Position numbers and translations under genes: made by a program. The notes under the pieces were generated by a model. It was not told the origin of the DNA and did not search any database. It saw only the letters and a list, made by a program, of their open reading frames with translations. A stretch of 64,000 nucleotides of DNA from an uncultured Bacilli bacterium (GTDB lineage: Bacteria; Bacillota_I; Bacilli_A; RFN20; CAG-288): assembly GCA_944332485.1 (NCBI GenBank), contig CALVKB010000001.1:22924-86923 (forward strand), written 5' to 3'. Below, piece by piece: positions 5,030 through 46,252 of this stretch. The number at the start of each line of letters is the position of its first letter. The stretch's first letter is position 1.

Positions 5030-7621
5030 ATGGCGAATAAAAAAGAACAGAAAGAAAAGACAACTTTCACCCCGATGATTCAACAATATTTGAAAATCAA
5101 AGAACAAAATAAAGATGTTCTTATATTTTTCAGATTGGGTGATTTTTACGAGTTATTTTTCGAAGATGCCGAGATAGCTTCAAAGGAATTGCAATTATTT
5201 TTAACGAGTAAATCAGCTGGAAACAATCAAAAAATCAGAATGTGCGGAGTCCCGCATCACGCTTATAAATCTTACGTTCAAAAATTGTTGGATAACGGTC
5301 ATAAAGTTGCCATTGTTGAACAATTAGAAGATCCTAAACTCGCTCAGAACAAATTAGTTCAAAGGGATGTTGTTCAAATTATAACTCCTGGTGCTAACAT
5401 GGACTTAAAAACAAATGAAAATAACTATATAGCTTCGATAGAACTTGATAATAGCATATGTTCAATAGCTTTTTGTGATATGTCAACAGGTGAACTTATA
5501 GCAACTAATGTCATAAATGAAAACAGTGAAATTCTCTCAGCATTACTTGATAAAGATGTCAAAGAAGTGGTTTTTTCAAGTTTTGTCAATGCAAATTTGG
5601 TCAGTTTTATAAAACAAAATCGTGCCAATATTTTAATCTCGGAATGCAACGATGTTGAAACAAGTCTTGAGATGGAACCATTATTTGAATATTTGAAAGA
5701 TCCACGACAGATAAAAGCGATAACCCGTTTGATCAATTACTTGCGTTTCACACAAAAACGTGAAATTTCATACTTTAAAAAGGTCATTAGTAAACAATCA
5801 AACAAGGTTCTTAAAATCGATTATCAAGCTAAAAATAACCTCGAATTGATAAGATCCCTCGATAACAAAAAAGTCTATGGCACTTTGTATTGGTTTTTAA
5901 ACAAAACCAAAACACCGATGGGTAGCCGTTACCTTAAACGTATAATCGATGAACCAAGTGCTGATATAGATGAGATCAATCAACGTTTGGATGTAGTTAC
6001 ATATTTTATCGATAATTTCATCGATCGTGAGGATTTAGTATCTTTTTTAAGTGAAGTTTATGATTTGGATCGCTTAATCGCTCGTATCGGTTACAATTCA
6101 ACAAATGGACATGATATGCTCCAATTGAAAAAATCACTGATTACTATTCCAAAAATTAAAAATGTTTTACAAAAATGTCCTTTGAAACTTGTTCAAGATA
6201 TCACTAACAGAATTTCAAATTTCGATTATTTAGTTGAAAAGCTTGAAAAAGCCATTGTTGAAGAACCTCCTATTACAATCACTGAAGGTGGTATTTTCAA
6301 AAAAGGATATGACTCAGAACTTGATGAATTGATCGATATCAACACATCTTTGAAGCAATGGATTTCTCAGTTGGAATTGAAAGAAAGAGAAAGAACCAAC
6401 ATCAAAACCTTGAAAGTCGGTTATACAAAAATATTCGGTTACTACATCGAAATATCAACTGGTGCTTTGAAAGATGTCAAAGATGAGTTTGGTTATGAAA
6501 GAAAACAAACTTTGACAACCGGTGAAAGATTCGTCACAAAAGAATTGAAGGAGAACGAAGAGAAAATTTTACATGCTTCTGAACTTAGAAAAGATAGAGA
6601 GTACAAGTTGTTCTGTGAACTTAGGGATGAATTTAAAACCTACACACATCAAATTCAGGATTTATCAGATTGTTTAAGTTACCTTGATGTTCTTTTAAGT
6701 TTTGCATCAGTATCATCTGATAACAACTTTGTCAGACCTATTTTCAACGATGAAAATTTAGTCGATGTTAAACAATCAAGACACGTTGTCATGGAACAAT
6801 GCAACAAAGATAAAAAATTTGTTCCGAATGATTTTTACATGGATAACAACACCGATGTTTTACTTATCACCGGTCCTAATATGGGTGGTAAATCAACATA
6901 TATGAGGCAACTTGCTTTAAATGTTGTGATGGCACAGATCGGTACATACGTCTCCGCAGAATATTACAATTGTCCAATTTTTGATCAGATTTTCACAAGA
7001 ATCGGAGCTTCAGATGATATTATCAAAGGTCAATCAACATTCATGATGGAGATGGAAGAGGTCAATCACGCTTTGAAACAATCGACAAGTCACTCCCTTA
7101 TATTATTCGATGAGATCGGTCGTGGAACTGCAACATATGATGGTATGGCACTTGCCCAAGCTATTTTGGAATACTTAGTCACAAAAGTTCATGCTAAAAC
7201 TTTATTTTCAACTCACTACCATGAATTAACAAATTTAGTAAGTGAAATTAAGCAAATAAAAAATATTCATGTTGGCGTCAAAGAGGAAGATGGTAACATC
7301 ACTTTTTTATACAAAGTTTTAGATGGACCGATGGATAAATCCTATGGTATCAATGTCGCAAGTTTAGCAAATATGCCGAAATCACTTTTGGATAGAGCGA
7401 AAATTATATTGAAAACATTCGAATCAATTTCCAACAAAGATATTGATTTTATCAAAAAATCGATGGCTGATTTTGAGAAACAACAAAAACAAGAAATTGA
7501 AGCATCAAACGATAAACTTAAAGCAACTTTAAATAAAATTAAAAAGATTGACCCTGTCAATTTAACACCATTAGAAGCTTTAAATTTCGTATTTGAATTG
7601 AAGAAAGATATAGGTGATTAA
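5030..7621 (+). CDS. mutS: DNA mismatch repair protein MutS
   Basis: Walker A GPNMGGKSTYMRQ, STF/MMEM motifs; 863 aa. Confidence 0.95.
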   Translation: MANKKEQKEKTTFTPMIQQYLKIKEQNKDVLIFFRLGDFYELFFEDAEIASKELQLFLTSKSAGNNQKIRMCGVPHHAYKSYVQKLLDNGHKVAIVEQLEDPKLAQNKLVQRDVVQIITPGANMDLKTNENNYIASIELDNSICSIAFCDMSTGELIATNVINENSEILSALLDKDVKEVVFSSFVNANLVSFIKQNRANILISECNDVETSLEMEPLFEYLKDPRQIKAITRLINYLRFTQKREISYFKKVISKQSNKVLKIDYQAKNNLELIRSLDNKKVYGTLYWFLNKTKTPMGSRYLKRIIDEPSADIDEINQRLDVVTYFIDNFIDREDLVSFLSEVYDLDRLIARIGYNSTNGHDMLQLKKSLITIPKIKNVLQKCPLKLVQDITNRISNFDYLVEKLEKAIVEEPPITITEGGIFKKGYDSELDELIDINTSLKQWISQLELKERERTNIKTLKVGYTKIFGYYIEISTGALKDVKDEFGYERKQTLTTGERFVTKELKENEEKILHASELRKDREYKLFCELRDEFKTYTHQIQDLSDCLSYLDVLLSFASVSSDNNFVRPIFNDENLVDVKQSRHVVMEQCNKDKKFVPNDFYMDNNTDVLLITGPNMGGKSTYMRQLALNVVMAQIGTYVSAEYYNCPIFDQIFTRIGASDDIIKGQSTFMMEMEEVNHALKQSTSHSLILFDEIGRGTATYDGMALAQAILEYLVTKVHAKTLFSTHYHELTNLVSEIKQIKNIHVGVKEEDGNITFLYKVLDGPMDKSYGINVASLANMPKSLLDRAKIILKTFESISNKDIDFIKKSMADFEKQQKQEIEASNDKLKATLNKIKKIDPVNLTPLEALNFVFELKKDIGD

Positions 7622-7622
7622 T

Positions 7623-9476
7623 ATGAGCAAAGTTTATTTGATGCCGATGGAACTTGCTAACAAAATCGCCGCTGGAGAGGTTGTTGAGCGTCCAAGTTCA
7701 GTCATAAAAGAACTTGTTGAAAATTCCATCGATGCCGAAGCAACAGAGATAACAGTTTCTATAATCGATGGTGGAAGAACCATGATAAAAGTTATCGATA
7801 ATGGTTGTGGAATGTCAAAAGAAGATGCTGTTTTATCATTCTCTCGCCATGCTTCAAGCAAAATTAGAAATACTTATGATTTGGATAGTTTGAAAACCTT
7901 AGGCTTCAGAGGTGAAGCTATCCCATCCATAGCTTCTGTTTCAAATTTCACAATGGAAACCTCAGATGGAGTAACCGGCACAAAAATTGTCAAAACACCT
8001 GATGCTGATTTGATAGTTTCAAACGGAACTCTTAGAAAAGGAACAACTATCACAATAGAAAAACTTTTTTACAATGTTCCAGCTAGATTGAAATTTTTAA
8101 AATCCGATAAATTTGAAAAGATGAAATGCGTTGAAATTATGGAAAATATCGCTCTTGGTTTTCCAAACATTCAATTTATCGTTAAAGCAGATGAAAAAGT
8201 AGTTTTCAAAACTTCTGGAAGAAACAATTTACTCGAAGCTATTTTTCAAGTGAGAGGAAGTTCAATCGCTAAGAATTTATACAAAATTCACCATAAAGAG
8301 AATGGTTTAGAGATAGATGGATATATAAGTAAACCGGAGACAAATTTTTCATCAAGATTTGAGATGCACACCTATATAAATTCGAGAGTTATCTACAATT
8401 ACAAATTAAATAGATGCATCGAAGAAGTCTACAAAGATTATTTAGCTCCCAATAGATATCCTTACACCTGTATAAATTTCAAAATTGACCCATATTTAGT
8501 TGATGTCAATGTTCACCCTTCAAAAAAGGAAGTTAAAATTTCAAATGAAGAACATATAATATCCGTTTTAAAAAAAATCATCAAAGAGAAATTACTCAGT
8601 GAAAAGCCAACATACAACATCAATTTCAGACAAAAAGATGAACCATCACAACAGGAGAAACTTATCAACGAAGAGGAACTTGTTGAATTATTAAATAAAT
8701 CGAATTTCTCATCATTCGCTTTTGAAGAAAAAACAAAAGTTGAAACAAATGAAACAACTGACTCAAATGATCTTCCTTTTGATTTGTTTGAAACAAAAGT
8801 AGAAAACAAGGATAAAATCGAACCCAATATACCAAGTTTTGAAGATAAGCACTTAATTTTGAATGATTCACAAGCGAAAACATCCAACTCACTACTTTCA
8901 CTTAATTTAACTCCATTAGGTCAAATTTCAAACACATATATAGTTTTCGATTCAGAAAAAGGTCTTGTTTTGATGGATCAACATGCCGCAGCAGAAAGAA
9001 TCAATTTTGAAAAGTACAACTCTCTTTTCAAAAATCCAATTTACTCAGCCACTCCTTTGATTCCTATACTGATCGATGTATCACCAAATTTAATGCTCAA
9101 TTTTGATGACGAACACAAAAATAATTTAAAAAACATCGGTGTTATTTGTGAAGAATTTGGACAAAATACAATAAAAGTTTCTGAAATACCGACATTTTTG
9201 TTGAATAAAGAGGAGTACATATCAGATATCATCACTTTGTGCTTGCAGGACAAAAATATCTCTTATACGGACTTGATCAAAGATACTATCGCATCTATAG
9301 CCTGCAAAGCTTCGATAAAAGCCAACAGAAAATTGACATTTGATGAAATCCAATACTTAGTTGCAAAGCTTAGAAAATGTGAAAATCCTGCCAATTGCCC
9401 ACATGGACGTCCGACTGTGATACTTTTAACTTTACAAGAGATTGAAAAGTTATTCAAAAGAACAGGAGGCTTCTAA
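7623..9476 (+). CDS. mutL: DNA mismatch repair protein MutL
   Basis: GHKL ATPase motifs ELVENSIDA, DNGCGM. C-terminal endonuclease-type domain with a CPHGRP motif. ATG at 7623 is preceded by AGGTGA. The ORF track's 7614 would be a GTG start overlapping mutS. Confidence 0.93.
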   Translation: MSKVYLMPMELANKIAAGEVVERPSSVIKELVENSIDAEATEITVSIIDGGRTMIKVIDNGCGMSKEDAVLSFSRHASSKIRNTYDLDSLKTLGFRGEAIPSIASVSNFTMETSDGVTGTKIVKTPDADLIVSNGTLRKGTTITIEKLFYNVPARLKFLKSDKFEKMKCVEIMENIALGFPNIQFIVKADEKVVFKTSGRNNLLEAIFQVRGSSIAKNLYKIHHKENGLEIDGYISKPETNFSSRFEMHTYINSRVIYNYKLNRCIEEVYKDYLAPNRYPYTCINFKIDPYLVDVNVHPSKKEVKISNEEHIISVLKKIIKEKLLSEKPTYNINFRQKDEPSQQEKLINEEELVELLNKSNFSSFAFEEKTKVETNETTDSNDLPFDLFETKVENKDKIEPNIPSFEDKHLILNDSQAKTSNSLLSLNLTPLGQISNTYIVFDSEKGLVLMDQHAAAERINFEKYNSLFKNPIYSATPLIPILIDVSPNLMLNFDDEHKNNLKNIGVICEEFGQNTIKVSEIPTFLLNKEEYISDIITLCLQDKNISYTDLIKDTIASIACKASIKANRKLTFDEIQYLVAKLRKCENPANCPHGRPTVILLTLQEIEKLFKRTGGF

Positions 9477-9478: not shown

Positions 9479-11056
9479 ATGATTTATGTGATATTAGGCC
9501 AAACTGCTTCAGGGAAAACTTCTTTAGCTTTGAAACTTGCTAGAGAATTCAATTTGCCATTGATAAATTGTGATGCTTTTCAGTGTTACAAGCAGATGAA
9601 TATCGGAACTGCCAAACCAAAAAAAGAAGAACTTGAAAATGTTGAACATTATTTTATCAATAACGTTGATATAACCGATGCCATCAATGTTAAAAAATTT
9701 CAAGAACAAGGTAGACAACTTATAGATAAACTTACAAAAGAAAATAAAGACATCATCATTTCAGGTGGTACAAGTTTATATATTAGAGCTCTGTTATTCA
9801 ATTATGAATTCCCTGATATTGATAACAAAATATACGATGAATTATCTTTATACCCGTTAGATGAACTTTTAAAAATTTTGGAAGAACTCGATATTGAAAC
9901 ATACAATAACATCGACAAAAACAATAAAAGAAGAGTCGTAACAGCTGTCGCTTTGGCAAAAAATAATTTTTCAAGAGATGATCTTGTGAAAAAATTCAAC
10001 AATAAACCTTTATATCCTTGTTTGTTTTTCAATATTGATGTTGATAAAGAGGATATCAATGAAAAAATTGACTTAAGAGTTGAGACGATGTTTGTTGAAA
10101 ACTTAGTAAATGAAATTGAATATTTGATACAAAATTACGACTACAACAAACTCAACGCTTTTAAAGCCATCGGCTACAAAGAGTTCTTAAATTATATCAA
10201 TGAAGATAAAACAATCGATAAAAGTAAACTTGAACAAATCAAACAAGATATCAAAACACACACTCATCAATATGCTAAAAGACAAAGAACTTTTATAAAA
10301 ACTCAATTTTCCAATGTGAAAAATTTATCACCAGAAATGATATATTCTCGTATTATGATCGATCAAAGTATCAAACAAAGAACTAAATTGATGCTTGATC
10401 AAAAAATATTGAGCCAAATAGAAAATATGCATTTTTTAGTCTGTGGTCTTGGAGGTGTTGGTAGTTTGATACCTGAATATTTAGTAAGATTAGGTGCAAA
10501 AAACATCGATATTTTGGATTTTGACAAAGTTGATTTAACTAATCTAAACCGACAGATAAGTTACAATCTTGATGATGTTGGAAAAGATAAAATAGATGTT
10601 ATAAGTGAAAAACTTGCAAAGATAAATCCTTCAGTTAATATAACTTCACTGAAGATGAAATTAGATAAGTTTAATATGATAGACAAACAGTATGATTTTA
10701 TCTTCGATTGTATTGATTCAATTGAGGGAAAAGCATATTTAACTAAATATTCAATCGATAATAACATCCCAATTATTATAAGTGGCGGTGCTGGTAAAAA
10801 AATAGATTCCACCAAGACAAAAATTGAAAAGATAACAAAATCAAATGACGTTTTGATAAAAAAATATCTTGAATATTTAAAACCTATATTAACAAAAGAT
10901 GATCATCTAAATTCAATATATTGTGTTTGTTCGAATGATACAAATATCAAAACAAAAAATAAAACAATATCTTCAATCCCAACTGTCCCTAACAGTTTCG
11001 GTTTGGCCATGATATCATTTTTACTAAAGAGAATTGTAGGAGGTTTTAATATATGA
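9479..11056 (+). CDS. miaA: Fusion: tRNA dimethylallyltransferase MiaA (N) + TcdA/CsdL-type tRNA threonylcarbamoyladenosine dehydratase (ThiF/E1 fold, C)
   Basis: N-terminus has P-loop GQTASGKTSLA and YAKRQRTF (MiaA). From about residue 300: LVCGLGGVGS...DFDKVDLTNLNRQ...SGGAGKKIDSTK...CVCSND, matching E. coli TcdA (VVGIGGVGS..DMDDVCVTNTNRQ..TGGAGGQIDPT..CVFSTE). Confidence 0.8.
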   Translation: MIYVILGQTASGKTSLALKLAREFNLPLINCDAFQCYKQMNIGTAKPKKEELENVEHYFINNVDITDAINVKKFQEQGRQLIDKLTKENKDIIISGGTSLYIRALLFNYEFPDIDNKIYDELSLYPLDELLKILEELDIETYNNIDKNNKRRVVTAVALAKNNFSRDDLVKKFNNKPLYPCLFFNIDVDKEDINEKIDLRVETMFVENLVNEIEYLIQNYDYNKLNAFKAIGYKEFLNYINEDKTIDKSKLEQIKQDIKTHTHQYAKRQRTFIKTQFSNVKNLSPEMIYSRIMIDQSIKQRTKLMLDQKILSQIENMHFLVCGLGGVGSLIPEYLVRLGAKNIDILDFDKVDLTNLNRQISYNLDDVGKDKIDVISEKLAKINPSVNITSLKMKLDKFNMIDKQYDFIFDCIDSIEGKAYLTKYSIDNNIPIIISGGAGKKIDSTKTKIEKITKSNDVLIKKYLEYLKPILTKDDHLNSIYCVCSNDTNIKTKNKTISSIPTVPNSFGLAMISFLLKRIVGGFNI

Positions 11057-12624
11057 ATATCAAAAGAAAACTTATAAAGGATTTTAATGTTAAAAAAGAA
11101 AGTTTGATCAACTACTACAATGATGAAATTTACAAAATCAATTATAAAATGTACGACGAACTACCTTATAAAGGTAAGCTTATTTTAGTCACAGCCATGA
11201 CACCTACAATCTACGGTGAAGGAAAAACAACCGTTTCTATAGGTTTAGCTGATGCGATGAACTACATAAAAAAGAATGTTCTTTTATCACTTCGTGAACC
11301 TTCTTTAGGTCCGGTATTTGGAACAAAAGGTGGAGCAGCTGGCGGTGGCAAATGCTTACTGATACCTGAGGATAAAATCAATACTAGATTCACTGGCGAT
11401 TTTGATAACGTTGCAACAGTTAACAATTTGATCTCCTCTGTTATCGATAATGAGATGTACTTCAACTCAAGCTTAAATATATCTTCAGAGAGAATAGTTT
11501 TCCATCGTTGCATGGATGTTTGTGATAGATTTTTAAAAGATCTCACTTTCCATATGGATAGGAAAAAATCACCGAATATTGAATACAAATCAAGTTTTGT
11601 CATTACTGCCGCAAGTGAAATAATGGCTATATTTACGCTAAGTCAAGATGAAAACGACTTTAAATCTCGCTTAGAAGATGTTACTGTTGCATTCTCAACT
11701 GACAACAGAAGAATAACCGTTAAAGATTTGAATATAACCAACGCTTTGATGAGTTTGATGAAAGAAACTTTATACCCGAATGTTGTCAAAACAAAATGCA
11801 ACACACTCTCATTAGTTCACGCTGGTCCTTTTGCAAATATCGCCACTGGAACATCAAGTGCAATATCTTTGAAACTCGCATTGAAACTTAGTGATTATGT
11901 TATAACTGAATGTGGATTTGGAGCTGATCTCGGTTTTGAAAAATACATCGATATCGTGTCTCGTAACAATAAGATATATCCTGATTTGACAATACTTGTT
12001 GCAACCATCAAAGCCATCAAATATCACGGCGATGGAAACTTGGAATTAGGTTTTGAAAATGTTAAGAAGAATGTTGAACTAATAAGAAAAACTAACATCG
12101 AACCTATCATTGCCATAAATAAATTCAACGATGATTCTTCTGAAGATATTAAACTCGTACAAAAATTATGTGAAAAGAACAATATCGAATATTCATTTGT
12201 CACATCCTACAAAGATGGTAATAAAGGTGCTGTTGATTTAGCAAATAAAGTTGTAGAAAAATTGCAAAATAAAAAAGAAAACGACATCAAGTTTTTCTAC
12301 AACTTTGAAGATACAATTGAGAATAAAATTTTTGCAATTGCTAAAAATGTCTATGGCTGTAAAGATGTAGAATACAGCCAAAAAGCCTTGGATGATATAA
12401 AAGTTATAAATGAAAATGGTTTGAGTAACTTTGCAATTTGTATGGCTAAAACACCAAACAGTTTCACCGATGATAAGAATGTGAAAAACAGAGGTGACAA
12501 TTCAACACTTCATATACAAAAAATTGAATTTAATTCAGGTTCAAGACTTCTAATTCCATATACTGGTGAGATGATTTTGATGCCCGGTTTATCAAAAGAT
12601 CCATTGATCAAACATTTTAAATAA
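11053..12624 (+). CDS. fhs: Formate--tetrahydrofolate ligase
   Basis: TPTIYGEGKTTVSIGL and REPSLGPVFGTKGGAAGGG are signature Fhs motifs. Confidence 0.95.
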   Translation: MNIKRKLIKDFNVKKESLINYYNDEIYKINYKMYDELPYKGKLILVTAMTPTIYGEGKTTVSIGLADAMNYIKKNVLLSLREPSLGPVFGTKGGAAGGGKCLLIPEDKINTRFTGDFDNVATVNNLISSVIDNEMYFNSSLNISSERIVFHRCMDVCDRFLKDLTFHMDRKKSPNIEYKSSFVITAASEIMAIFTLSQDENDFKSRLEDVTVAFSTDNRRITVKDLNITNALMSLMKETLYPNVVKTKCNTLSLVHAGPFANIATGTSSAISLKLALKLSDYVITECGFGADLGFEKYIDIVSRNNKIYPDLTILVATIKAIKYHGDGNLELGFENVKKNVELIRKTNIEPIIAINKFNDDSSEDIKLVQKLCEKNNIEYSFVTSYKDGNKGAVDLANKVVEKLQNKKENDIKFFYNFEDTIENKIFAIAKNVYGCKDVEYSQKALDDIKVINENGLSNFAICMAKTPNSFTDDKNVKNRGDNSTLHIQKIEFNSGSRLLIPYTGEMILMPGLSKDPLIKHFK

Positions 12625-12667
12625 TTTAACTTTAATTTAAACAAAACAATAATATAAAATAATAGTA

Positions 12668-13504
12668 ATGATTCAGTTATTAGGTAAAGATTTAAGAAAA
12701 AAAGATATCGCAGAATTGAAAGACAAGGCTAGCAAAAATGTTAACCTAACTTTTTATTTGGTTTATGACCCATCGTTCAACGAATCCTGTTCATACGTAA
12801 ATTCAATTATTAAAACACTCGATAAAGTGGGTTGGCAACATGTCACTTACAAACTTACAAAATCATACAGAGATTATGGTGCTTTAAATAAGATTCGCTC
12901 CATAAAAGATTCGATGGTCATTTTAGCAAGACCAGTTCTTTTTGATGAAGAAACTTTGATCTCTTTGATCGATTATAGAAGTGATCCAGATATGTTGACT
13001 GATTTCAACAAAGGAAAACTTTACTCTGGCAATTTGAACTATCTTCCAGCAACAGCCATGTCTGTTAGAAGGCTTGTTGAATATTACAACATCGATTGTA
13101 AAGGAAAGAAAGTTTTGGTTATCGGAAGAAGCATCTCAGTTGGTTTACCTATATTCATGTATTTTCAAAGAAAGAATGCAACATGTACATTAGCTCATTC
13201 CAAAACCGAGAAGATTGATTTGAATAAAGCTATCATCGAGTCAGATATAATTGTTTTGGCAACCGGTAAACAAGGTTTGATCGATAGAAAATTTTTGAAC
13301 AATAAACAGATAATAATAGATTGTGGTTATCATTCAAATGGCACTGGTGATTTAGGGTTTGTTCCAAATGATAATGAACTTTATGCTTACACTCCAGTCC
13401 CAGGAGGCGTTGGACCACTAACTATTACAAGTTTGTTGAAAAATGCCTTGTTATTACATACTCTTTACAAAAATTCAAAAGAGAAAGAATTGAACAATTT
13501 TTAA
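12668..13504 (+). CDS. folD: Bifunctional methylenetetrahydrofolate dehydrogenase/cyclohydrolase
   Basis: VLVIGRSISVGLP...CTLAHSKT...PVPGGVGPLTI; conserved FolD motifs. Confidence 0.9.
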   Translation: MIQLLGKDLRKKDIAELKDKASKNVNLTFYLVYDPSFNESCSYVNSIIKTLDKVGWQHVTYKLTKSYRDYGALNKIRSIKDSMVILARPVLFDEETLISLIDYRSDPDMLTDFNKGKLYSGNLNYLPATAMSVRRLVEYYNIDCKGKKVLVIGRSISVGLPIFMYFQRKNATCTLAHSKTEKIDLNKAIIESDIIVLATGKQGLIDRKFLNNKQIIIDCGYHSNGTGDLGFVPNDNELYAYTPVPGGVGPLTITSLLKNALLLHTLYKNSKEKELNNF

Positions 13505-18513: not shown

Positions 18514-19623
18514 ATGGGACTTAAAGCAGGTATTGTTGGTTTACCCAATGTCGGCAAATCAACTTTGTTCAACGCCATCACCAAAAGTCACGCTTTGATG
18601 GAAAATTATCCATTTGCAACAATAGAACCTAACACTGGTGTTGTGATGTTGAACGACAAAAGATTTGATCGTTTATGTGAAATTTTCAAACCAAAAAGCA
18701 AAGTCAAAGCAACTTTTGAATTCACAGATATCGCAGGTTTAGTAAAAGGAGCTTCCAACGGTCAAGGTCTTGGTAACAAATTTTTAGATCATATAAGACA
18801 AGTTGATGCCATCATTCATGTTGTTCGTTGTTTCAAAAACGATGATATCATCCATGTTGAAAATTCAATAGATGCCATAAGAGATATCGAAGTTATAAAC
18901 ATGGAATTGATAATGGCGGACTATGATGTTTGTAAGAAAAGATACGATAAAGTTTTTCCAAAAGCAAAATCCAGCAAAGATAAAGATTCATTGTTTGAAA
19001 TTCAAGTTTTAGAAAAAGTTATTAAATTGCTTGAAGAAGGCAACATGCTTAAGGATTGTAACTTAGCCTATGATGAACTAAAAGTACTTTCAATTTTGAA
19101 TTTATTAACACTAAAACCCACTATTTATGTTGGGAATGTTTCTGAGAAAGAATATTCAAATCCATCGATAAGTGAGGAATTTTTAAAAGTTTCAGATTAT
19201 GCAAAAAAACACGATTCAGAATGTATCCCTATTTGTGCACAAACTGAGTGTGAACTTGCTTCCTTATCGGATGAGGAGAAAAAAGACTTTTTAAGCATGC
19301 TCAATATCACTATGTCTGGTTTGGATCAGATAACTTTAAGTGCTTATCACCTTTTAAATTTAAAAACATTTTTCACAACTGGAGCTGATGAAGTTAGAGC
19401 TTGGACTTTCAAAAATGGTATGACTGCACCAAACTGTGCTGGAATAATTCATTCAGACTTAGAAAAAGGCTTCATCAAAGCTGAAGTATACAAATATGAA
19501 GATATCGACAAATTCGGTAGCGAAGCTGAACTTAAAAGTCATGGTAAAATAGAAACTGTCGGAAAGGATTACTTGGTACAAGATGGCGATTGTCTTTATA
19601 TCAGGTTCAATGTTACAAAATGA
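18514..19623 (+). CDS. ychF: Ribosome-binding ATPase YchF
   Basis: GIVGLPNVGKSTLFNA and a TGS-like C-terminus ...YLVQDGDCLYIRFNV; ends with TGA. Confidence 0.95.
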   Translation: MGLKAGIVGLPNVGKSTLFNAITKSHALMENYPFATIEPNTGVVMLNDKRFDRLCEIFKPKSKVKATFEFTDIAGLVKGASNGQGLGNKFLDHIRQVDAIIHVVRCFKNDDIIHVENSIDAIRDIEVINMELIMADYDVCKKRYDKVFPKAKSSKDKDSLFEIQVLEKVIKLLEEGNMLKDCNLAYDELKVLSILNLLTLKPTIYVGNVSEKEYSNPSISEEFLKVSDYAKKHDSECIPICAQTECELASLSDEEKKDFLSMLNITMSGLDQITLSAYHLLNLKTFFTTGADEVRAWTFKNGMTAPNCAGIIHSDLEKGFIKAEVYKYEDIDKFGSEAELKSHGKIETVGKDYLVQDGDCLYIRFNVTK

Positions 19624-20111
19624 TCGATTATAAAATTGGATTCAGCACTGATATTCACCGTTTTAAAAATGAAGGTGATTATATTTTGCTAGGTGGTGTG
19701 AAAATTAAAACCGATAATCTTTCAATTGTCGCTCATTCCGATGGTGATTGTTTACTCCACGCTTTAGCAGAGAGTATTCTATCAAGTCTTGGAATGGAAG
19801 ATCTTGGCACTTACTTTGATGATCGTGATGATAAATATCTTAACTACGATTCAAAGAAGATTCTAAAATTCAGCTTGGATGAACTTCATAAAAGAAATTG
19901 GAAAATAAGAAATGTCTGTATCAATATAACACTGCAACAACCTCGTTTGTCAGAGTATAAAAAGCTTATCAAAGAAAACTTATGCCAACTTCTTAACTTG
20001 AGTAGTGAAGATATTTCCGTCCATGCTGGAACAAATGAAAAATTGGATGATATTGGCAAAGGATTAGCCATAAAAGTGGATTCCACAATCTTAATTTACA
20101 AGGAGGTTTGA
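19620..20111 (+). CDS. ispF: 2-C-methyl-D-erythritol 2,4-cyclodiphosphate synthase
   Basis: IGFSTDIHRF...LGGV...AHSDGDCLLHAL...GDIG-like motifs. ATG at 19620 overlaps the ychF stop (ATGA). The track ORF starts earlier, at 19590. Confidence 0.88.
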   Translation: MIDYKIGFSTDIHRFKNEGDYILLGGVKIKTDNLSIVAHSDGDCLLHALAESILSSLGMEDLGTYFDDRDDKYLNYDSKKILKFSLDELHKRNWKIRNVCINITLQQPRLSEYKKLIKENLCQLLNLSSEDISVHAGTNEKLDDIGKGLAIKVDSTILIYKEV

Positions 20112-21804: not shown

Positions 21805-22206
21805 ATGAATAATCAAATTTCAATGATTGATGCTGCTTATTCTATCGTTAAAGAATCTAAAAAGCCAATCACTCTTGACGCTTTACTTAAAAGTGTGCAA
21901 AAAAAATTGGAACTTACAGATGAGGAGTTGATTCAGCGTCGTTCTAAATTCTACACAAATTTATCATTAGATTCACGCTTTGTCAATTTAGGTCATCATG
22001 GATGGGATTTATCCATTCGTCATGACTTTGCAACTGTTCATGAGGAAGTCAAAGACCTTGATGCTGAAGGCGAGACAAACATTCTCGATTTGGTTGATGA
22101 GGAAGAATTGGATGAAAGCGAACAAGATGAAGAAAATGAAAATTCAAATGATAGCTTAACAGAACAAGATGATGATTTATTCATTCCAAGTGAAGAAGGA
22201 GAGTAA
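21805..22206 (+). CDS. rpoE: DNA-directed RNA polymerase subunit delta
   Basis: N-terminal HARE-HTH-like domain ([21 protein letters not shown]) and a long acidic D/E-rich C-terminal tail, as in B. subtilis RpoE. Confidence 0.85.
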
Positions 22207-26851: not shown

Positions 26852-27322
26852 TTATTTTCTGCAAAGTTCCAACTCGATAAATGCAAATAAAGCACCAAGA
26901 ACTGGAATAAATTGTAAGTATGTGTATAACTGCATATCTTTGATGTCAAAAATAAAGTAAACACATGTAAGAACAACCAAACCTGCAAAAGCTGCAACAT
27001 TAATACCGTTGATTAAACGGAATTTGCTGAATATTGTAGCCAATAAACTTGAAACAACTGGGAAGCAAAGAACACCTAATAAGATGTATTCTCTGATGCC
27101 TAAACTTTCAAATATTTCTTTAAATTGCTTAATCGGCTCACTGAGACTCTTTCCTAAAATTAAGTTGATTAAATACAAATTACTATCTTTTTCTTGAGGT
27201 ACCAACAAAGCAACAATAACAAAACCGACAGCACAAAGCAAAGTTATTAAACCAATGTACCAAGGAGATCTACTTGTTTTTGGTTCCTTTAATTCTCTTT
27301 TTGAATGCATTTCCATAATCAT
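26852..27322 (-). CDS. Hypothetical membrane protein (4 TM)
   Basis: Hydrophobic segments; no recognisable motifs. Confidence 0.45.
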   Translation of the reverse strand: MIMEMHSKRELKEPKTSRSPWYIGLITLLCAVGFVIVALLVPQEKDSNLYLINLILGKSLSEPIKQFKEIFESLGIREYILLGVLCFPVVSSLLATIFSKFRLINGINVAAFAGLVVLTCVYFIFDIKDMQLYTYLQFIPVLGALFAFIELELCRK

Positions 27323-27451
27323 ATTCTCCCTTCAGTATTATTGTAGCAAAATTTAAATTGTATTCTTTAATTATTTTAAAAAATTAGTTTTTTTACAACA
27401 ATAAAACAATAAAAAAAGCCTTGATTATTCAAGACTGCCATAAACAAGATA

Positions 27452-27536
27452 TGCCCGGGGCGGGAATCGAACCCGCATGGATGTTTAGTCCGCAGGATTT
27501 TAAGTCCTGTGCGTCTACCAATTTCGCCACCTGGGC
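27452..27536 (-). tRNA. tRNA-Leu (anticodon UAA), no encoded CCA
   Basis: Reverse complement folds as a cloverleaf with a long variable arm, T-arm GCGGGTTCGATTCCCGC and anticodon loop CUUAAAA. Confidence 0.8.
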
Positions 27537-27540
27537 AAAA

Positions 27541-27613
27541 TGACTCGCGGCAGGTTCGAACTGCCGACCCCTTGATTAAAAGTCAAGTGCTCTTCCGACT
27601 GAGCTAGCGAGCC
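27541..27613 (-). tRNA. tRNA-Lys (anticodon UUU)
   Basis: Reverse complement GGCTCGCTAGCTCAGTCGGAAGAGCACTTGACTTTTAATCAAG...GGCAGTTCGAACCTGCCGCGAGTCA; anticodon loop CUUUUAA. Confidence 0.85.
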
Positions 27614-27622
27614 ATGTATAAT

Positions 27623-27697
27623 TGGCTGGGGTACCTGGATTCGAACCAGGGCATAATAGAGTCAAAGTCTACTGCCTTACCGCTTGGCTATACCCCA
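27623..27697 (-). tRNA. tRNA-Gln (anticodon UUG), CCA encoded
   Basis: Reverse complement TGGGGTATAGCCAAGCGGTAAGGCAGTAGACTTTGACTCTAT...CCAGGTACCCCAGCCA. U1-A72 pair as in Bacillus tRNA-Gln. Confidence 0.85.
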
Positions 27698-27703
27698 ATT
27701 GGA

Positions 27704-27787
27704 TGGTGGGCGAGAGTGGATTCGAACCACTGAACCCGAAGGAACAGATTTACAGTCTGCCGCGTTTAGCCTCTTCGCTACTCACCC
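27704..27787 (-). tRNA. tRNA-Tyr (anticodon GUA), CCA encoded
   Basis: Reverse complement GGGTGAGTAGCGAAGAGGCTAAACGCGGCAGACTGTAAATCTGTT + long variable arm + GTTCGAATCCACTCTCGCCCACCA. Confidence 0.85.
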
Positions 27788-27823
27788 AGTTTTATCCAAG
27801 TAATTTAGTCGCGTGTTTTACTA

Positions 27824-27899
27824 TGGTGGATGTTGAGAGGCTCGAACTCCCGACCCCCACCTTGTAAGGGTGATGCTCTCCCAGCTGAGCTAAACATCC
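27824..27899 (-). tRNA. tRNA-Val (anticodon UAC), CCA encoded
   Basis: Reverse complement GGATGTTTAGCTCAGCTGGGAGAGCATCACCCTTACAAGGTGGGGGTCGGGAGTTCGAGCCTCTCAACATCCACCA. Confidence 0.88.
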
Positions 27900-29338: not shown

Positions 29339-30043
29339 TTATAAAACTTTTTTTATTCCTTTTATGTAATCATTGAAGAAATCAACATCCTCTTTATATG
29401 TGATTTTACTTAGATGTAAACCACCGTATAAAACAGGATATTTATGTGTGATTTTGTATGCTAATTGCATCTCATCAGTGTTGTTTAAATCTGATATATT
29501 TTTATAAATTTCCTTTAAAAGAGATAATTTGAACGCCTGTGGAGTCAAAATTCTAAGTAAATCATCTCTTGTAACAACTTCATAATATTCATTTTTATTC
29601 TTCATCAAAGTATCGCAGACATTTGAAGCATATGTCACCGCTTGTTCAGTTTTAAGAACATTCAAAATGTTGATAAAATCTGTATCTTTAACGAAACATC
29701 TACAAACATCATGAATAACGACATTACAATCAGTATATTCCAAGTTTGTAGCTTCAGAAATCGCGTTTTTCACACTCTCTGAACGGGTATTACCACCAAC
29801 TATCAGATCGATGTTTTTAAAATTCAATTTAAACTCACTTAAAATATCTTTGACAATGTTGTAGTCATCTTTGGATATAATCAAAAAAATTCTTTCAAAG
29901 CACTTGGCTTGCAACGCACTTTTCAAAGGAAAAACAAACAATGGTGTATTAGTTTGCGTATCGCGATAAAATTGCTTTTTTACTTCATTATTAAACCTTT
30001 GTGAACTTCCTGCTAATAATAAAAATAATATATTATGTCCCAT
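29339..30043 (-). CDS. ispD: 2-C-methyl-D-erythritol 4-phosphate cytidylyltransferase-like (IspD/TarI family)
   Basis: N-terminal LLAGSSQRF...KQF nucleotidyltransferase motif; ispF is elsewhere in the window. IspD versus ribitol-5-P cytidylyltransferase cannot be separated by eye. Confidence 0.6.
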   Translation of the reverse strand: MGHNILFLLLAGSSQRFNNEVKKQFYRDTQTNTPLFVFPLKSALQAKCFERIFLIISKDDYNIVKDILSEFKLNFKNIDLIVGGNTRSESVKNAISEATNLEYTDCNVVIHDVCRCFVKDTDFINILNVLKTEQAVTYASNVCDTLMKNKNEYYEVVTRDDLLRILTPQAFKLSLLKEIYKNISDLNNTDEMQLAYKITHKYPVLYGGLHLSKITYKEDVDFFNDYIKGIKKVL

Positions 30044-30125
30044 ATAAAGAAGTTTAGCATAAAAAATGAGTAATTTAAAATTTGCTTTTAAATTTTGTTT
30101 ATAATTTTACTCGTGAGGTTTGATT

Positions 30126-30647
30126 ATGTTTTTAATGAGTACTTTAACATTACAAATATTAGCGATAGTAGGTATAATTCTCGGTTTGATTCTGTTGACT
30201 TTTTTATATATTTTAACCATGTATTTGATCGCCAAAAAACAGAATATAACTGTTGAAAAAATATATCAACAAACTCGTCCATTTCAAGCAGAAAGATTGG
30301 AATTGATAAAAAATGGTTTCGATATATTGGACGAGAAAAATTACTCAACAAATGAATCTTTGCGTGAATTATATTTGGAAATAGATGAATTATACAAGTT
30401 GGATGTGAAATCAAAACGTGGTTATGTCAAACAGAGCATGGATATTTTGTTCATCTATCTTATTAAAGTTTTTAAGGAAGATTTAAAATCCGATGAAGAA
30501 TTTATTAAAAAACTTGAAGAGACTAATGAAATTTCAAGAACATATTTCGACAAATACAACAAAAAAGCCATGATGTTCAACTCTTTTAAATCTATGATTT
30601 TGGTTAAACCATTTTTGAAAAAATTAGAAAAAAAAGAGATTCTATAA
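30126..30647 (+). CDS. Hypothetical membrane-anchored protein
   Basis: One N-terminal TM, then a charged helical domain. GAGG RBS 7 nt before the ATG at 30126; the track ORF starts at TTG 30120. Confidence 0.45.
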   Translation: MFLMSTLTLQILAIVGIILGLILLTFLYILTMYLIAKKQNITVEKIYQQTRPFQAERLELIKNGFDILDEKNYSTNESLRELYLEIDELYKLDVKSKRGYVKQSMDILFIYLIKVFKEDLKSDEEFIKKLEETNEISRTYFDKYNKKAMMFNSFKSMILVKPFLKKLEKKEIL

Positions 30648-36028: not shown

Positions 36029-36997
36029 TTAAAATTTAGCCGATTTACAAAAACTTGAAAATTCTACATATTTTGATTTTTCAATATCATGAAAAATTTT
36101 CATTTTTTCCTTGTTGGGGTAAACGTTGTAATAACATATGTAAAGTTTTGCCCATAAATACCAAAAATAATCAAATAAAGCTTTCAAATAAGGGTATATT
36201 TCATTTATGAAAATATCATAATGCTTTGAAGCTTCTATTTGTAAAATTTCATTTAAAAAGGAAGTTATGAATAGTTTGTTATTTTTTAAAAGATTCACAT
36301 CGTTAAGTTTGTTTTCATAATAGAAAGTTTGTTCTGATAAGTAACTTACTAAGCTGTAAATTAATTCGGTATGATACAAAAAATCGTAGTCAATTAAGAA
36401 AACTTTATTTTTTGGTGTCACTAAAATATTGGATTCAATCAAATCAAGATGGGTTAAACCTTGAGTGAAAAATTGAGGATATTTTATTTTTAATTCACTT
36501 ATTTTGTTTATAAGTAGGCTTAATATTTCATCTTGACTTATATTAAGAATGCTATGATATTCATCAATTTCTTTGAATAAGTCAAAATAAAAAACAGTTC
36601 CATCATATTTTGATAAATACTTCAAATTGTCTATTATCTTTACTAGAGTATTATCAAAATTATCATTTAATTGTGATATTTTTCTTGAATTAACATTTTT
36701 TGTAATTAAACAAAAGTTTCTTTTAAATTTCTCGTATTTTATGATTATATTTTCATATTTATTCAAGTATTTAATAAGTTCAGCATTCAAAGGTTGACGA
36801 TGCAATTTGTCTAAAAATTTAATATCGAAAATTTCTTTGTTATCGATAAGTCCAACTTTATAAATTAAGTCTTTTTTAGTATCTAAAAATGAAGTGTTGC
36901 TTATGCCATCACCGAAGTATTCAAAAGATTCGCACTTAGAAATTTCACAATTACACAATTTACTTAAGTCAGAAAATAAAGCTTTTTCACCTTTCAT
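36029..36997 (-). CDS. Phosphotransferase-family kinase (APH/choline-kinase fold), substrate unknown
   Basis: Brenner-type catalytic motif LTHLDLIESNILV and IDYDF (DFG-like metal-binding) motif. Confidence 0.5.
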   Translation of the reverse strand: MKGEKALFSDLSKLCNCEISKCESFEYFGDGISNTSFLDTKKDLIYKVGLIDNKEIFDIKFLDKLHRQPLNAELIKYLNKYENIIIKYEKFKRNFCLITKNVNSRKISQLNDNFDNTLVKIIDNLKYLSKYDGTVFYFDLFKEIDEYHSILNISQDEILSLLINKISELKIKYPQFFTQGLTHLDLIESNILVTPKNKVFLIDYDFLYHTELIYSLVSYLSEQTFYYENKLNDVNLLKNNKLFITSFLNEILQIEASKHYDIFINEIYPYLKALFDYFWYLWAKLYICYYNVYPNKEKMKIFHDIEKSKYVEFSSFCKSAKF

Positions 36998-37667: not shown

Positions 37668-40052
37668 TTATTGTATTTTTTCAAATATTGAAGATAAGGG
37701 AGTTACAACAAATTCTCTATCTTCAATTTTTAATTTAAGTGATTTATTTGAAAAATTGAAACTTGATAAATATTCATTATTATCATCTTTCAAAATGTAG
37801 TTTACAGAATTTAAATAATCCTGTTTTGACAATCCAAATCTACCTTTTTTATCAAAACTCACATTCTCTTTCATCATCTTTATGTTAGGATAAACTGGCA
37901 TTTCGTTTTTTCTGTATGATAAGTATTTTTTGAATTGCTCAACGTACTCTTTGTATTTTGTGACATTATCCCAGTTGATAGCGTTGAGAATAACACCTGA
38001 TGCATATGAATTATGACAAAACACTCTTTTTGTTTCATCGATATTCAAAATGTATGATTGCGATAATGTAAATTCATCCTCAAGATATCTATTTTTCTCA
38101 TTTTCAGGTAAAGCAGTTACTTCCTTAGTTCTGAAAAATTCCTGACCGATTTGGTAAAAACTTATACCATTTGACAATAAAACTAAATTTGTACATAAGC
38201 TTGCAATCTTTCTTGCAATATTCTCATCATGTAAAGTTATGACAAGTTTATCAAACAAAGGGAGATTATCATGACATTCAACATAATTAACGGAGTTGAA
38301 GATATTATGTTCAGAATATGGTATGTAATTTTTGCATGAGATAAGTTCTTTTTTATTTGGATTACTATTCATAATTCCAAATACAATATCATCATGCATC
38401 TGTTTGATTAACTTAACTTCTTTTTTATAGTAACCTTTATAAACTTTCTGACAATATCCATCAACTTTACAATCGAAAACATGGCCTTTCATACCATCAC
38501 GGAATGTGTCGTTGAAAGCTCCAACACAACTATTTGTTGAATCCAAAAAATGCAAATTTTTCTGAATTGCCATCAAATAATCGTTACTTTCATCAAGCTG
38601 ATGAATATTTCCATTCGCATCAAACATATCCCAAGCTTCACCATAAATCAATGAATTTTTATTGATCTTATGAACTTTATCAGATAATTCTCTCATCGCT
38701 TGTAAATCAAGCAATCCCATCAAATCAAAACGGAATCCGGACATTCCGTAATTTTCAGTGAACATACAGCATGAATCGATGATGTATTTTTTGAACATCT
38801 TTCTTGTTGTATTCATATCCGCTCCAGCTTTTGAGGTACTTGATAAACGGAAGTAATAATCAGGTGCGAGCATCTCAAATTTGGAATCCAACTGACTTGG
38901 AACATGGTTGAAAACAACATCCATGATCACACCGACATTTATACTTGCGTATTCTTTTATTACACTTATCATCTCTTTTATTCTGCACAAAGGATCATTT
39001 GGGTTGGAACTGTAATGTGCTTCCAAACAATTGTAATTTAAAGGACCATAACCCCAATTGTAATTGTTGTGGGAAGTTTTCAAGATAAAATCCTTATCAA
39101 AATTATTCTCATGAGCACTTAAAAATTGATAAAAAGGCAATATTTGAATATGTGTCAAACCTTTTTCGCTCAATTCTTTCATGTAATCAAAACCGACTTT
39201 ATCACCATAGGAATTTTTGACATTTTTTTCAATTAATCCAAGATATTTTCCTTTAACTTCAGTATTCTTAGTTATGAAAGTATCAGACATTGAGAAGTCT
39301 TTAACATGAATTTCACAAACGACAGGTTTTGTTGTATAAAAGGATTTAATGTGTTCGAGTGTTTTATTATCTATTTTATGTTTATTCCAATCGATGAAAA
39401 CACCTAATGTTCCATTTTCCAAACACGAGTAACAGTAAGGATCAACCACATTTTCATATGTGATTCCAAAATTTGTTACAGTGAATGTGTATATGCTTAA
39501 ATCTTTAACTTCATTCAAAACAACTTCATAACAACCGTTATTTTGATAATTCATCTTATATTGCTTGAATTCATCATTTATATCGGTTTTCAAATTAAGT
39601 TTTACTTCAGTTGCAAAAGGTGCAAAAACTCTGAAATAGGTCTTGTTATTTTCATTGAAACTTCCAAGTTTATAATCCATATCAGGGGTGTATAAACTGT
39701 TAAATTCTTCAGAGGAATAATATTTATCAAAATATAATCTAGAGCGATATTTTTGATTTCCTGACTCGATTTCAAGAGTGTAAATTTTTCTAATATCCAA
39801 TTTGAAATCGATCAAAACTTCATAATATTCTTTGTGTTTTTTAATGTAATTAAGTTCCTTCACTTCAGAGGTTGAACATAGATGAATCTTATCGATATTC
39901 TTCAAATTTAGCTTAGTGTAAATTCTAATTGAGTTACAATCAACCTCAGAATGTTTGTAACCAAAAACACAATAAAAATCACTTTTTTCACGTTTTATTT
40001 GCACGTTTTTAACTTCATCCTGAATAACAGTTTCGACCTCTTTAAATTCCAT
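37668..40052 (-). CDS. Pullulanase paralogue (type I, GH13), no signal peptide, probably cytoplasmic
   Basis: YNWGYGP, GFRFDLMG, YGEAWDMF, YVECHDN. Preferred start MEFKEV at 40052 after AAGGTGG; the ORF track extends to 40106. Confidence 0.85.
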   Translation of the reverse strand: MEFKEVETVIQDEVKNVQIKREKSDFYCVFGYKHSEVDCNSIRIYTKLNLKNIDKIHLCSTSEVKELNYIKKHKEYYEVLIDFKLDIRKIYTLEIESGNQKYRSRLYFDKYYSSEEFNSLYTPDMDYKLGSFNENNKTYFRVFAPFATEVKLNLKTDINDEFKQYKMNYQNNGCYEVVLNEVKDLSIYTFTVTNFGITYENVVDPYCYSCLENGTLGVFIDWNKHKIDNKTLEHIKSFYTTKPVVCEIHVKDFSMSDTFITKNTEVKGKYLGLIEKNVKNSYGDKVGFDYMKELSEKGLTHIQILPFYQFLSAHENNFDKDFILKTSHNNYNWGYGPLNYNCLEAHYSSNPNDPLCRIKEMISVIKEYASINVGVIMDVVFNHVPSQLDSKFEMLAPDYYFRLSSTSKAGADMNTTRKMFKKYIIDSCCMFTENYGMSGFRFDLMGLLDLQAMRELSDKVHKINKNSLIYGEAWDMFDANGNIHQLDESNDYLMAIQKNLHFLDSTNSCVGAFNDTFRDGMKGHVFDCKVDGYCQKVYKGYYKKEVKLIKQMHDDIVFGIMNSNPNKKELISCKNYIPYSEHNIFNSVNYVECHDNLPLFDKLVITLHDENIARKIASLCTNLVLLSNGISFYQIGQEFFRTKEVTALPENEKNRYLEDEFTLSQSYILNIDETKRVFCHNSYASGVILNAINWDNVTKYKEYVEQFKKYLSYRKNEMPVYPNIKMMKENVSFDKKGRFGLSKQDYLNSVNYILKDDNNEYLSSFNFSNKSLKLKIEDREFVVTPLSSIFEKIQ

Positions 40053-40337
40053 AATTTCAACCACCTTTATAATACAATGATAAATATATATTTTTATTTT
40101 ATTCAATTCAATATTTTTATTTTTGAAATATTAATAAATTGTTAATTTGCTTTGTAATAGGTATCATAATTGAAAAAGCAATTTATTTACACTATATAAA
40201 AGTTGCTTTATAATTTTTACTCTATTCTTTATGTTATACAAAAACAACAAAAAACGTAAAAAATTTCTTCATAAATTAAAGTTGAAAATAATATTATTTT
40301 TATTTATATTTTATATGGTTATAAGGGAGTTTTAAGT

Positions 40338-41834: not shown

Positions 41835-41836
41835 CT

Positions 41837-43702: not shown

Positions 43703-43713
43703 GAGGTTAATTT

Positions 43714-44820: not shown

Positions 44821-44831
44821 GGAGGTCGGAT

Positions 44832-45644: not shown

Positions 45645-45646
45645 AA

Positions 45647-46252
45647 ATGGTATTTTTAACTACATTCATATCTTCCTTATTAGTTAACAACGTCATACTA
45701 AGTGGAACAAAAGGCCTTTGCTCCTACATCGGACTTTCCAAAGATAAAAAAGCAACTTTAGGTATGTCGATCGCTTTGATCGTCGTTTGTGTTTTATCAG
45801 GTTTGATCTCCTGGGGCTTAGCCGCTTTATTGACACTTATCAACGCAACTTATTTATCAACAATCGTCAGCATCCTTGTCATCGCATCATTTGTTCAACT
45901 TCTTGAGATTTTCATCAAGAAATTCCTCCCAAGTTTGTATAAATCATTGGGTATTTACTTGCCATTGATTACAACAAACTGTGTTGTTATGGGTTTGGCT
46001 ATTTCAATTTTCTCAACATACGCAAAATATATCGATGGTACTCTTAGCTCCCTTGATAGTGCTTTGACCATCCTTGGTATGATCTTAGCTTATCCATTAG
46101 GTTACTTCATGGTTATCTATGTCTTTGCTTTCATTCAAGAGAGAATTCAAAACAACAACGAAACTCCACGTGGTTTCAAAGGTGCTGCTATCGCTTTTAT
46201 CGCAACAGCTGCTATGTGTTTAGCAATTTACGGCTTCACCGGACTTGTTTAA
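45647..46252 (+). CDS. rnfA: Rnf subunit A
   Basis: NqrE/RnfA family; six TMs; 201 aa. Confidence 0.9.
   Translation: MVFLTTFISSLLVNNVILSGTKGLCSYIGLSKDKKATLGMSIALIVVCVLSGLISWGLAALLTLINATYLSTIVSILVIASFVQLLEIFIKKFLPSLYKSLGIYLPLITTNCVVMGLAISIFSTYAKYIDGTLSSLDSALTILGMILAYPLGYFMVIYVFAFIQERIQNNNETPRGFKGAAIAFIATAAMCLAIYGFTGLV

Follow-up and report, generated by a model that had tools for sequence, protein, structure and literature searches.

Can a single polypeptide serve two separate modification pathways at position 37 of the tRNA anticodon loop? The question is raised by a 64,000-nucleotide stretch of DNA (hereafter the window; G+C content 32%) from an uncultured Bacilli bacterium of the CAG-288 lineage (assembly GCA_944332485.1, contig CALVKB010000001.1, positions 22,924 to 86,923 of the forward strand). 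Here one open reading frame (ORF) of 525 aa, found at 9479..11056 (+) in the ORF listing and closed by a TGA stop at 11054-11056, joins MiaA, the dimethylallyltransferase that makes N6-dimethylallyladenosine (i6A37), to a domain of the TcdA/CsdL type, the dehydratase that turns N6-threonylcarbamoyladenosine (t6A37) into its cyclic form (ct6A37). We consider it probable that this fusion, miaA::tcdA, encodes a bifunctional tRNA-A37 enzyme and that it arose when co-transcribed miaA and tcdA genes lost the stop codon separating them.

One reading frame spans both domains

An initial annotation of this stretch, made from the sequence alone, had described the ORF as a fusion of MiaA and a TcdA-type protein, and the ORF listing, Pfam and the fused homologues all agree with it. 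Both Pfam families that it proposed to look for were matched far above chance, IPPT (PF01715) over residues 35-275 (E 1e-59) and ThiF (PF00899) over residues 308-441 (E 3e-38). The motifs that it quoted are all present: YAKRQRTF, which it had placed near residue 275, at residues 265-272, SGGAGKK at 435-441, and GLGGVGS and NLNRQ at the positions given in Table 1. The ATG lies 2 nt past the mutL stop and is preceded, at about 11 nt, by a GGAGG, and the TGA shares 4 nt (ATGA) with the ATG of the next gene, fhs.

A sequencing or assembly error that erased a stop codon or a frameshift between separate miaA and tcdA genes would produce the same single ORF, and a hidden stop and restart at about 10300-10380 had been named at the outset as a possible refutation. 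Such an error is conceivable insofar as close relatives carry separate, adjacent miaA and tcdA, and one assembly within the 90% identity cluster of our query holds a split version of 456 aa and 75 aa. However, at least 7 contigs, obtained from independent samples with independent assemblers (including ERZ28614000, ERR4096598 and ERZ24773515), encode exactly this 525-aa protein, and 10 more encode a 95%-identical variant of 523 aa. Among 5.8 billion proteins searched there are about 80 fused clusters (90% identity level) with 33-95% identity to the query, in which about 99% of the query is covered as a single protein with both Pfam domains. An alignment of 29 fused homologues shows no frame break at the junction, and the junction residues are conserved. 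Because the identical ORF recurs in independent samples and about 80 clusters keep the frame, the fusion is not a sequencing artefact, and we give the error explanation a vanishingly small probability.

The split version (P0248, 456 aa, and P0249, 75 aa, on one 136-kb contig) is broken elsewhere than at the domain junction; it reflects either a local misassembly or an allele that has become a pseudogene.

Judged from these sequences, the fused family is real and old but narrow, since a representative library at 50% identity holds only about ten fused clusters. Comparison with the 95%-identical relative yields a dN/dS (the ratio of nonsynonymous to synonymous substitution rates) of 0.03 in the MiaA half and 0.22 in the TcdA half; purifying selection acts on each of them, less tightly on the TcdA half.

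The N-terminal half is assigned to MiaA

By sequence and predicted fold the N-terminal half is a complete MiaA, in line with its first assignment. It scores 202.1 bits on the MiaA equivalog TIGR00174, above the cut-off of 148.65, with residues 4-278 placed on profile positions 3-279 of 288, and phmmer aligns query residues 2-302 to the Staphylococcus epidermidis enzyme (PDB 3d3q) at E 8e-41. Foldseek, applied to the AlphaFold2 (AF2) model described below, superimposes this half on tRNA-bound E. coli MiaA (3foz/2zm5) with a template modelling score (TMt) of 0.83-0.84 and a root-mean-square deviation (rmsd) of 2.8-2.9 over about 304 columns. The match takes in both domains of the MiaA fold, the core and the helical insertion domain, by which the anticodon stem-loop is clamped.

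The P-loop GQTASGKT occupies residues 7-14 (nt 9497-9520), Asp32 lies within DAFQCY, which aligns with DSMQVY of the PDB MiaA chains 3d3q and 2qgn, and GGTSLY is also present. Across the 29 fused homologues, on which residue conservation was judged throughout (identity down to 33%), G7, T9, K13, D32 and Q35 are invariant. From MiaA structures, we take an Asp of the D32 type to be the catalytic base.

The Gln of the P-loop replaces the Pro of most aligned MiaA (GPTxxGK). This GQT variant marks the main fused clade together with four relatives that have no TcdA (L004, L005, L008 and L015); GPT is retained in the split lineages and in a second fused pair, all of which are described further below.

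The C-terminal half is nearer to TcdA than to MoeB or ThiF

Sequence and predicted fold both support a TcdA-type domain in the C-terminal half, nearer to TcdA than to MoeB or ThiF. BLASTP against E. coli proteins (NC_000913) gives 113 bits for TcdA, 79 for MoeB and 73 for ThiF. Sequence matches in the PDB follow the same order, with the TcdA domain of Pandoravirus TsaN (8ide) and E. coli TcdA at E ~1e-25 and the weaker MoeB (E 5e-16) and ThiF (E 8e-14) behind them. Foldseek returns a TMt of 0.84-0.86 and an rmsd of 2.0-2.3 for E. coli TcdA (4d7a/4rdh/4rdi) versus a TMt of 0.65-0.74 and an rmsd of 4-6 Å for MoeB (1jwa: 0.74, rmsd 4.1). The nearest free-standing homologues (220-250 aa, 31-41% identity, about 94% coverage) are, where named, called tRNA threonylcarbamoyladenosine dehydratase. 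The further claim that this half matches E. coli TcdA along its length is nearly right. It holds best for the fold, whose alignment spans 232-242 columns of about 240-255 resolved residues, the TcdA-specific C-terminal part included, and so covers nearly the whole chain. The BLASTP alignment (36% identity over 188 aa) takes in TcdA residues 3-186 of 268, and the Cys220/Cys234 loop of the E. coli enzyme is absent.

The Pfam family bears the plain name ThiF, and the C-half could in principle be a ThiF/MoeB-type adenylyltransferase acting on a sulfur-carrier protein in thiamine, molybdopterin or thio-modification pathways. Its top NCBIfam match is, by a very narrow margin, the ThiF model PRK08644 (109.5 bits), level with the 107 bits obtained on the TcdA equivalog (NF011696/PRK15116; cut-off 304), both values lying below the respective cut-offs. 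This ambiguity is uninformative, because authentic E. coli TcdA scores alike on the ThiF model (103.7 bits, as against 582 on the TcdA model) and because free-standing Bacilli/Firmicutes proteins named TcdA by NCBI, at 153 and 172 bits, miss the same narrow cut-off; ThiF as named by PRK08644 was therefore rejected as the identity of this half. Beyond the lower scores to E. coli MoeB and ThiF, the C-half has no CxxC pairs where those two proteins have CYRC and CxVCG. It carries instead a TcdA-type C-terminal half, with a GGAGKKIDSTK segment that ThiF and MoeB do not have, and no ThiS/MoaD-like gene lies adjacent. In neighbor-joining (NJ) trees the fused C-domains fall into the group that holds E. 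coli TcdA, and ThiF and MoeB are separate from all the rest in 100/100 bootstraps, with these two E. coli proteins as the only outgroups and B. subtilis YrvM not among the sequences. A grouping with MoeB/ThiF, which the initial annotation had regarded as fatal to its proposal, was thus not observed; a sulfur-carrier adenylyltransferase is very improbable and largely refuted by the scores, the trees, the fold and the absent zinc motifs, which all favour TcdA.

The two halves are predicted to share a helix

The AF2 model, built from the 29-sequence alignment, has a predicted local distance difference test score (pLDDT) of 90.8, remaining at about 90 over the junction, and a predicted TM-score (pTM) of 0.86. 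It contains no flexible linker; a continuous helix is predicted to close the MiaA part and to double as the N-terminal helix of the TcdA part, and the BLASTP offset lines up KQR(301) with RQR(12) of E. coli TcdA. Residues Q276, F277, I288 and R301 of this region are conserved, R301 being nearly invariant, and the length of the junction differs by 3 aa at most across the main fused clade.

ATP-binding and catalytic residues of the TcdA half

As far as alignment with the E. coli enzyme can tell, the ATP-binding and catalytic residues of the TcdA half are kept (Table 1). E. coli TcdA has no Cys4 zinc site and binds ATP through R72, K85, T68 and N69 (PMC4405576), and yeast mutants altered at the positions equivalent to R72, K85 and D130 have less ct6A or none (PMC13139853). 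Invariant positions in the fused homologues are G323, G325-G328, D347, N355, R358, K371 and D413; T354 is not among the residues listed as conserved in the family.

An explanation that accepts the fusion as real would have the TcdA-like half no longer making ct6A. It would then help MiaA to dimerise or to bind tRNA, or it would adenylate some other carboxylate, either on another N6-acyl adenosine (N6-hydroxynorvalylcarbamoyladenosine, hn6A, or 2-methylthio-t6A, ms2t6A, only) or on a non-tRNA molecule. The C-half is indeed the more divergent one (107 bits on the TcdA model versus 153-172 for free-standing Bacilli TcdA) and has the higher dN/dS (0.22). The Cys loop and the K+ ligands of the E. 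coli enzyme are absent, and the rigid, length-conserved junction, with its pTM of 0.86, suggests a fixed inter-domain geometry. Against this, invariance of the GxGGxG motif, D347, R358, K371 and D413 in 29 homologues is unexpected for a purely structural module, the free-standing proteins of split relatives are ordinary TcdA-like members of the same clade, and i6A offers no carboxylate to adenylate. Nor is the lack of cysteines peculiar to the fusion, given that Cys66 and the Cys220/Cys234 loop are likewise missing in free-standing Firmicutes TcdA-like proteins; PMC13139853 describes yeast Tcds as functioning without a catalytic cysteine, the cysteines being dispensable there. We therefore consider a loss of ct6A synthesis unlikely and prefer the reading in which both halves are active.

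Split, fused and TcdA-less relatives

Relatives, which are uncultured low-GC gut Bacilli or 'Mollicutes' known as metagenome-assembled genomes (e.g., Ca. Onthovivens), share the locus miaB-mutS-mutL-miaA-[tcdA]-fhs-folD in three states: adjacent miaA and tcdA, the fusion, and miaA alone. Fused and split states were told apart by direct translation, the locus search being one that joins matches over gene boundaries and frames. Ten species-representative genomes have both parts, with four fused (L001, L002, L003 and L007; 520-526 aa) and six split and adjacent (L010, L012, L013, L016, L022 and L066). These six had given joined matches over query residues 1 to about 520, and their listing as fused was rejected upon finding two ORFs, in other frames or with a stop between them.

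Split genes lie close to each other. In L087 miaA and tcdA overlap by 17 nt, in L088 a single base separates them (TAA-A-ATG), and the two closest free-standing TcdA-like proteins (P0121 and P0122) are encoded directly after a separate miaA in the same synteny. The closest free-standing tcdA products, from split pairs, have 41% identity to the C-half of the fusion. Co-regulation, which had been put forward as one meaning of the fusion, gains support from this arrangement, in which miaA and tcdA are neighbours at the shared locus and overlap or abut. A shared tRNA-binding platform, the other meaning put forward, would be a further possibility.

In the third state, miaA abuts fhs and tcdA is absent (L004, L005 [Ca. 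Enterosoma], L008, L015, L009, L014 and L019). The close relatives L004, L005, L008 and L015 could have been taken as merely split, with tcdA next door, a possibility rejected on the basis of this abutment.

Bootstrapped NJ (distance) trees were computed for each half, and maximum-likelihood confirmation of them is needed. The main fused clade and the TcdA-less L004, L005, L008 and L015 together are monophyletic in 99/100 bootstraps, and the latter fall outside the main fused clade in 0/100. The tree of the C-terminal domain recovers the main fused clade as monophyletic in 81/100. A second fused pair (P0079 and P0105, from two independent samples) joins the main clade in 0/100 bootstraps of both trees and nests among split lineages. 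These sequences suggest an ancestral operon pair followed by two independent fusions and, in some lineages, by later loss of the TcdA half: the deletion is placed after the fusion because the four TcdA-less lineages always nest with the main fused clade, and a second, independent fusion is called for because P0079 and P0105 never join it.

Proposed function of the fusion protein

Under the bifunctional reading, loss of the stop codon between co-transcribed miaA and tcdA would have left a single ORF for both activities. The MiaA half would use dimethylallyl diphosphate (DMAPP) to place a dimethylallyl group on the N6 atom of A37 in those UNN-reading tRNAs that have A36-A37-A38, and MiaB, encoded nearby, would then turn i6A into its 2-methylthio derivative (ms2i6A). 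The TcdA half would bind ATP, adenylate the threonyl carboxylate of t6A37 and cyclise it to ct6A in ANN-reading tRNAs. This putative role matches what is shown for E. coli TcdA and for B. subtilis YrvM, the Bacilli TcdA orthologue that is experimentally required for ct6A and ms2ct6A (PMC5389704).

TcdA forms dimers that carry tRNAs at their outer rims (PMC4405576). The TcdA half would probably form an E1-like homodimer as well, and since TcdA is dimeric each particle of the fusion would then hold two MiaA modules. The fusion would fix co-expression and a 1:1 stoichiometry of two anticodon-loop enzymes and might also raise general affinity for tRNA. No intermediate can pass between the halves because no tRNA belongs to both substrate sets (A36 versus U36), and for the same reason the fusion most likely means co-expression and not channelling. 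An accessory role of the TcdA half is consistent with the B. subtilis ΔyrvM strain, which shows no growth phenotype (PMC5389704), with the higher dN/dS and with repeated loss.

Several points weigh against this reading. The bifunctionality of the fused proteins rests on comparison with known enzymes. The C-half misses the TcdA equivalog by a wide margin and scores no better on it than on the ThiF model (see above), and the outgroup sampling of the trees, E. coli ThiF and MoeB only, is thin. Of the E. coli cysteines proposed to be catalytic, Cys66 is replaced by Asp352 and the Cys220/Cys234 loop is deleted; Gln158 and Glu208 of the K+ site are not conserved either. Evolution of the TcdA half is about 7 times faster than that of the MiaA half, and some lineages that nest within the fused clade have lost the TcdA half, which is therefore dispensable. 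Finally, the t6A synthesis genes tsaB, tsaC, tsaD and tsaE are absent from the 64-kb window, so that the presence of the t6A substrate rests on the near-universality of this modification. A second tcdA was also looked for in the window and none was found.

A more ambitious idea is that of a 'position-37 hub', in which the protein would accept any anticodon stem-loop and direct each tRNA to one or the other active site according to nucleotide 36, or in which the activities would be allosterically coupled, e.g., with binding of ATP or of a t6A-containing tRNA tuning prenylation. The rigid, length-conserved junction and TcdA-mediated dimerisation are its basis, and we deem it quite unlikely. Were it true, the decoding of UNN and ANN codons would be linked in these reduced-genome gut Bacilli.

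Genomic context and candidate substrates

The genes around the bifunctional candidate run in the order rny, ymdB-like, miaB, mutS, mutL, miaA::tcdA, fhs, folD, ABC (ATP-binding cassette) transporter. This ORF order bears out that the fusion directly follows mutL, the conserved position of miaA. Two genes of the methylerythritol phosphate (MEP) pathway, ispF and ispD, are also present in the window, consistent with supply of DMAPP, the co-substrate of MiaA. Three tRNA genes of the window have the anticodon loops expected of substrates for one or the other half (Table 1).

Table 1. Features of the miaA::tcdA locus and related elements in the window (coordinates in nt; residues numbered in the fusion protein)
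Feature	Coordinates	Strand	Evidence or remark
miaB (i6A37 to ms2i6A37 methylthiotransferase), step after MiaA	3158..4621	+	TIGR01574, 499.9 bits vs cut-off 355.3; synteny kept in relatives
mutS	5030-7621	+	
mutL	7614..9476	+	directly upstream of the fusion; conserved miaA position
MiaA (tRNA A37 dimethylallyltransferase) half, residues 1-285	9479..10333	+	TIGR00174, PF01715, fold match
Junction, predicted continuous helix, residues 285-305	10331..10393	+	AF2 secondary structure, BLASTP offset
TcdA-type (t6A37 to ct6A37 dehydratase) E1-like half, residues 286-525	10334..11053	+	Pfam, BLASTP, fold, residues
GLGGVGS, residues 323-329	10445-10465	+	GxGGxG P-loop
NLNRQ, residues 355-359	10541-10555	+	includes R358
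D347			alignment with E. coli TcdA D61
T354 / N355			alignment with E. coli TcdA T68 / N69
R358			alignment with E. coli TcdA R72
K371			alignment with E. coli TcdA K85
D413			alignment with E. coli TcdA D130
fhs (formate-tetrahydrofolate ligase)	11053..12624	+	right-hand border of the miaA/tcdA slot; conserved synteny
ispF (MEP pathway)	19590..20111	+	
tRNA-Leu(UAA)	27451..27537	-	loop CUUAAAA (A36-A37-A38); expected MiaA substrate
tRNA-Lys(UUU)	27540..27614	-	loop CUUUUAA (U36-A37); expected t6A carrier, so TcdA substrate
tRNA-Tyr(GUA)	27704..27787	-	loop CUGUAAA (A36-A37-A38); expected MiaA substrate
ispD (MEP pathway)	29339-30043	-	

These tRNA genes belong to a compact cluster at 27451-27899 (-), Val(UAC)-Tyr(GUA)-Gln(UUG)-Lys(UUU)-Leu(UAA), with spacers of 2-36 nt. 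The one-carbon/folate genes fhs and folD (11053-13504, + in the window) directly follow the miaA/tcdA slot in every relative examined. The 4-nt ATGA overlap couples them translationally to the fusion in the window, and a functional link is not evident.

Elsewhere in the window, an Rnf operon (40338-46252) includes an unusually long RnfD-like ORF of 621 aa (41837-43702, +), of which PF03116 covers only residues 6-351, followed by an ORF of 368 aa (43714-44820, +) with no Pfam match at E<=1e-8; a fused or a divergent subunit of Rnf may be encoded here. At the same threshold, no Pfam match was obtained for the ORFs at 37668-40106 (-), 36029-36997 (-), 21805-22206 (+), 30120-30647 (+), 26852-27322 (-) and 52556-53068 (-), among which are ORFs of 811 aa and 321 aa.

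Comparison with known systems and implications

Both halves come from known families, and the fusion is a modest variation on them with no new chemistry and no new kind of system. With MiaA of E. coli (3foz/2zm5), S. epidermidis (3d3q) and Bacillus halodurans (3exa) it shares the core and insertion domain, the P-loop, DxxQxY and YAKRQxT, as well as a gene position after mutL and near miaB, as in Bacilli. It differs from them in the Gln of its GQTASGKT P-loop, in place of the usual Pro, and in a C-terminal tail that continues into a second enzyme. The likeness to TcdA/CsdL (E. coli 4d79/4d7a/4rdh/4yed) and YrvM comprises the E1-like Rossmann domain, GxGGxG, the equivalents of D61, T68, N69, R72, K85 and D130, and a TcdA-type C-terminal half with no Cys4 zinc site. 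Unlike E. coli TcdA, the fusion has neither the Cys220/Cys234 loop nor Cys66 nor the side-chain K+ ligands, scores below the NCBIfam TcdA cut-off, is not encoded beside csdA/csdE, and has its TcdA domain fused at the N-terminal end to MiaA.

That a TcdA domain tolerates an N-terminal fusion is known from Pandoravirus TsaN, which consists of TsaD-TsaC-SUA5-TcdA modules (PDB 8ide; PMC10484737). TsaN, among the best sequence and fold matches of our C-half, likewise has TcdA as the C-terminal module of a multi-domain A37 enzyme. However, it joins consecutive steps (t6A, then ct6A), whereas MiaA-TcdA joins parallel pathways that act on different tRNAs. The split pairs (the six above plus L087 and L088) have the same proteins in the same order and synteny (miaB/mutL-miaA-tcdA-fhs), differing in that they are two polypeptides and not one.

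The representative library holds other C-terminal fusions of MiaA, namely P0382 with a YggS-like pyridoxal phosphate (PLP) domain (Ala_racemase_N; 529 aa) and P0392 with a cytidylate kinase (523 aa). The MiaA C-terminus thus seems generally tolerant of read-through fusions. Because MiaA is also fused to these two domains, fusion to MiaA is by itself no proof of functional coupling.

In the literature searched we found no paper describing a MiaA-TcdA fusion or bifunctional enzyme, and public annotation calls the fused proteins 'MiaA' only. Capacity for ct6A is consequently under-called in widespread uncultured gut Bacilli. As a natural 'Rosetta stone', the fusion connects the i6A/ms2i6A and t6A/ct6A pathways of the anticodon loop, which are otherwise independent. 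As one locus preserves the operon pair, two fusions and domain loss, it offers a clean case for how and why tRNA-modification enzymes fuse, and the TcdA domain of the fusion, being compact and Cys-free, would be of use as a minimal model in work on the unsettled mechanism of TcdA.

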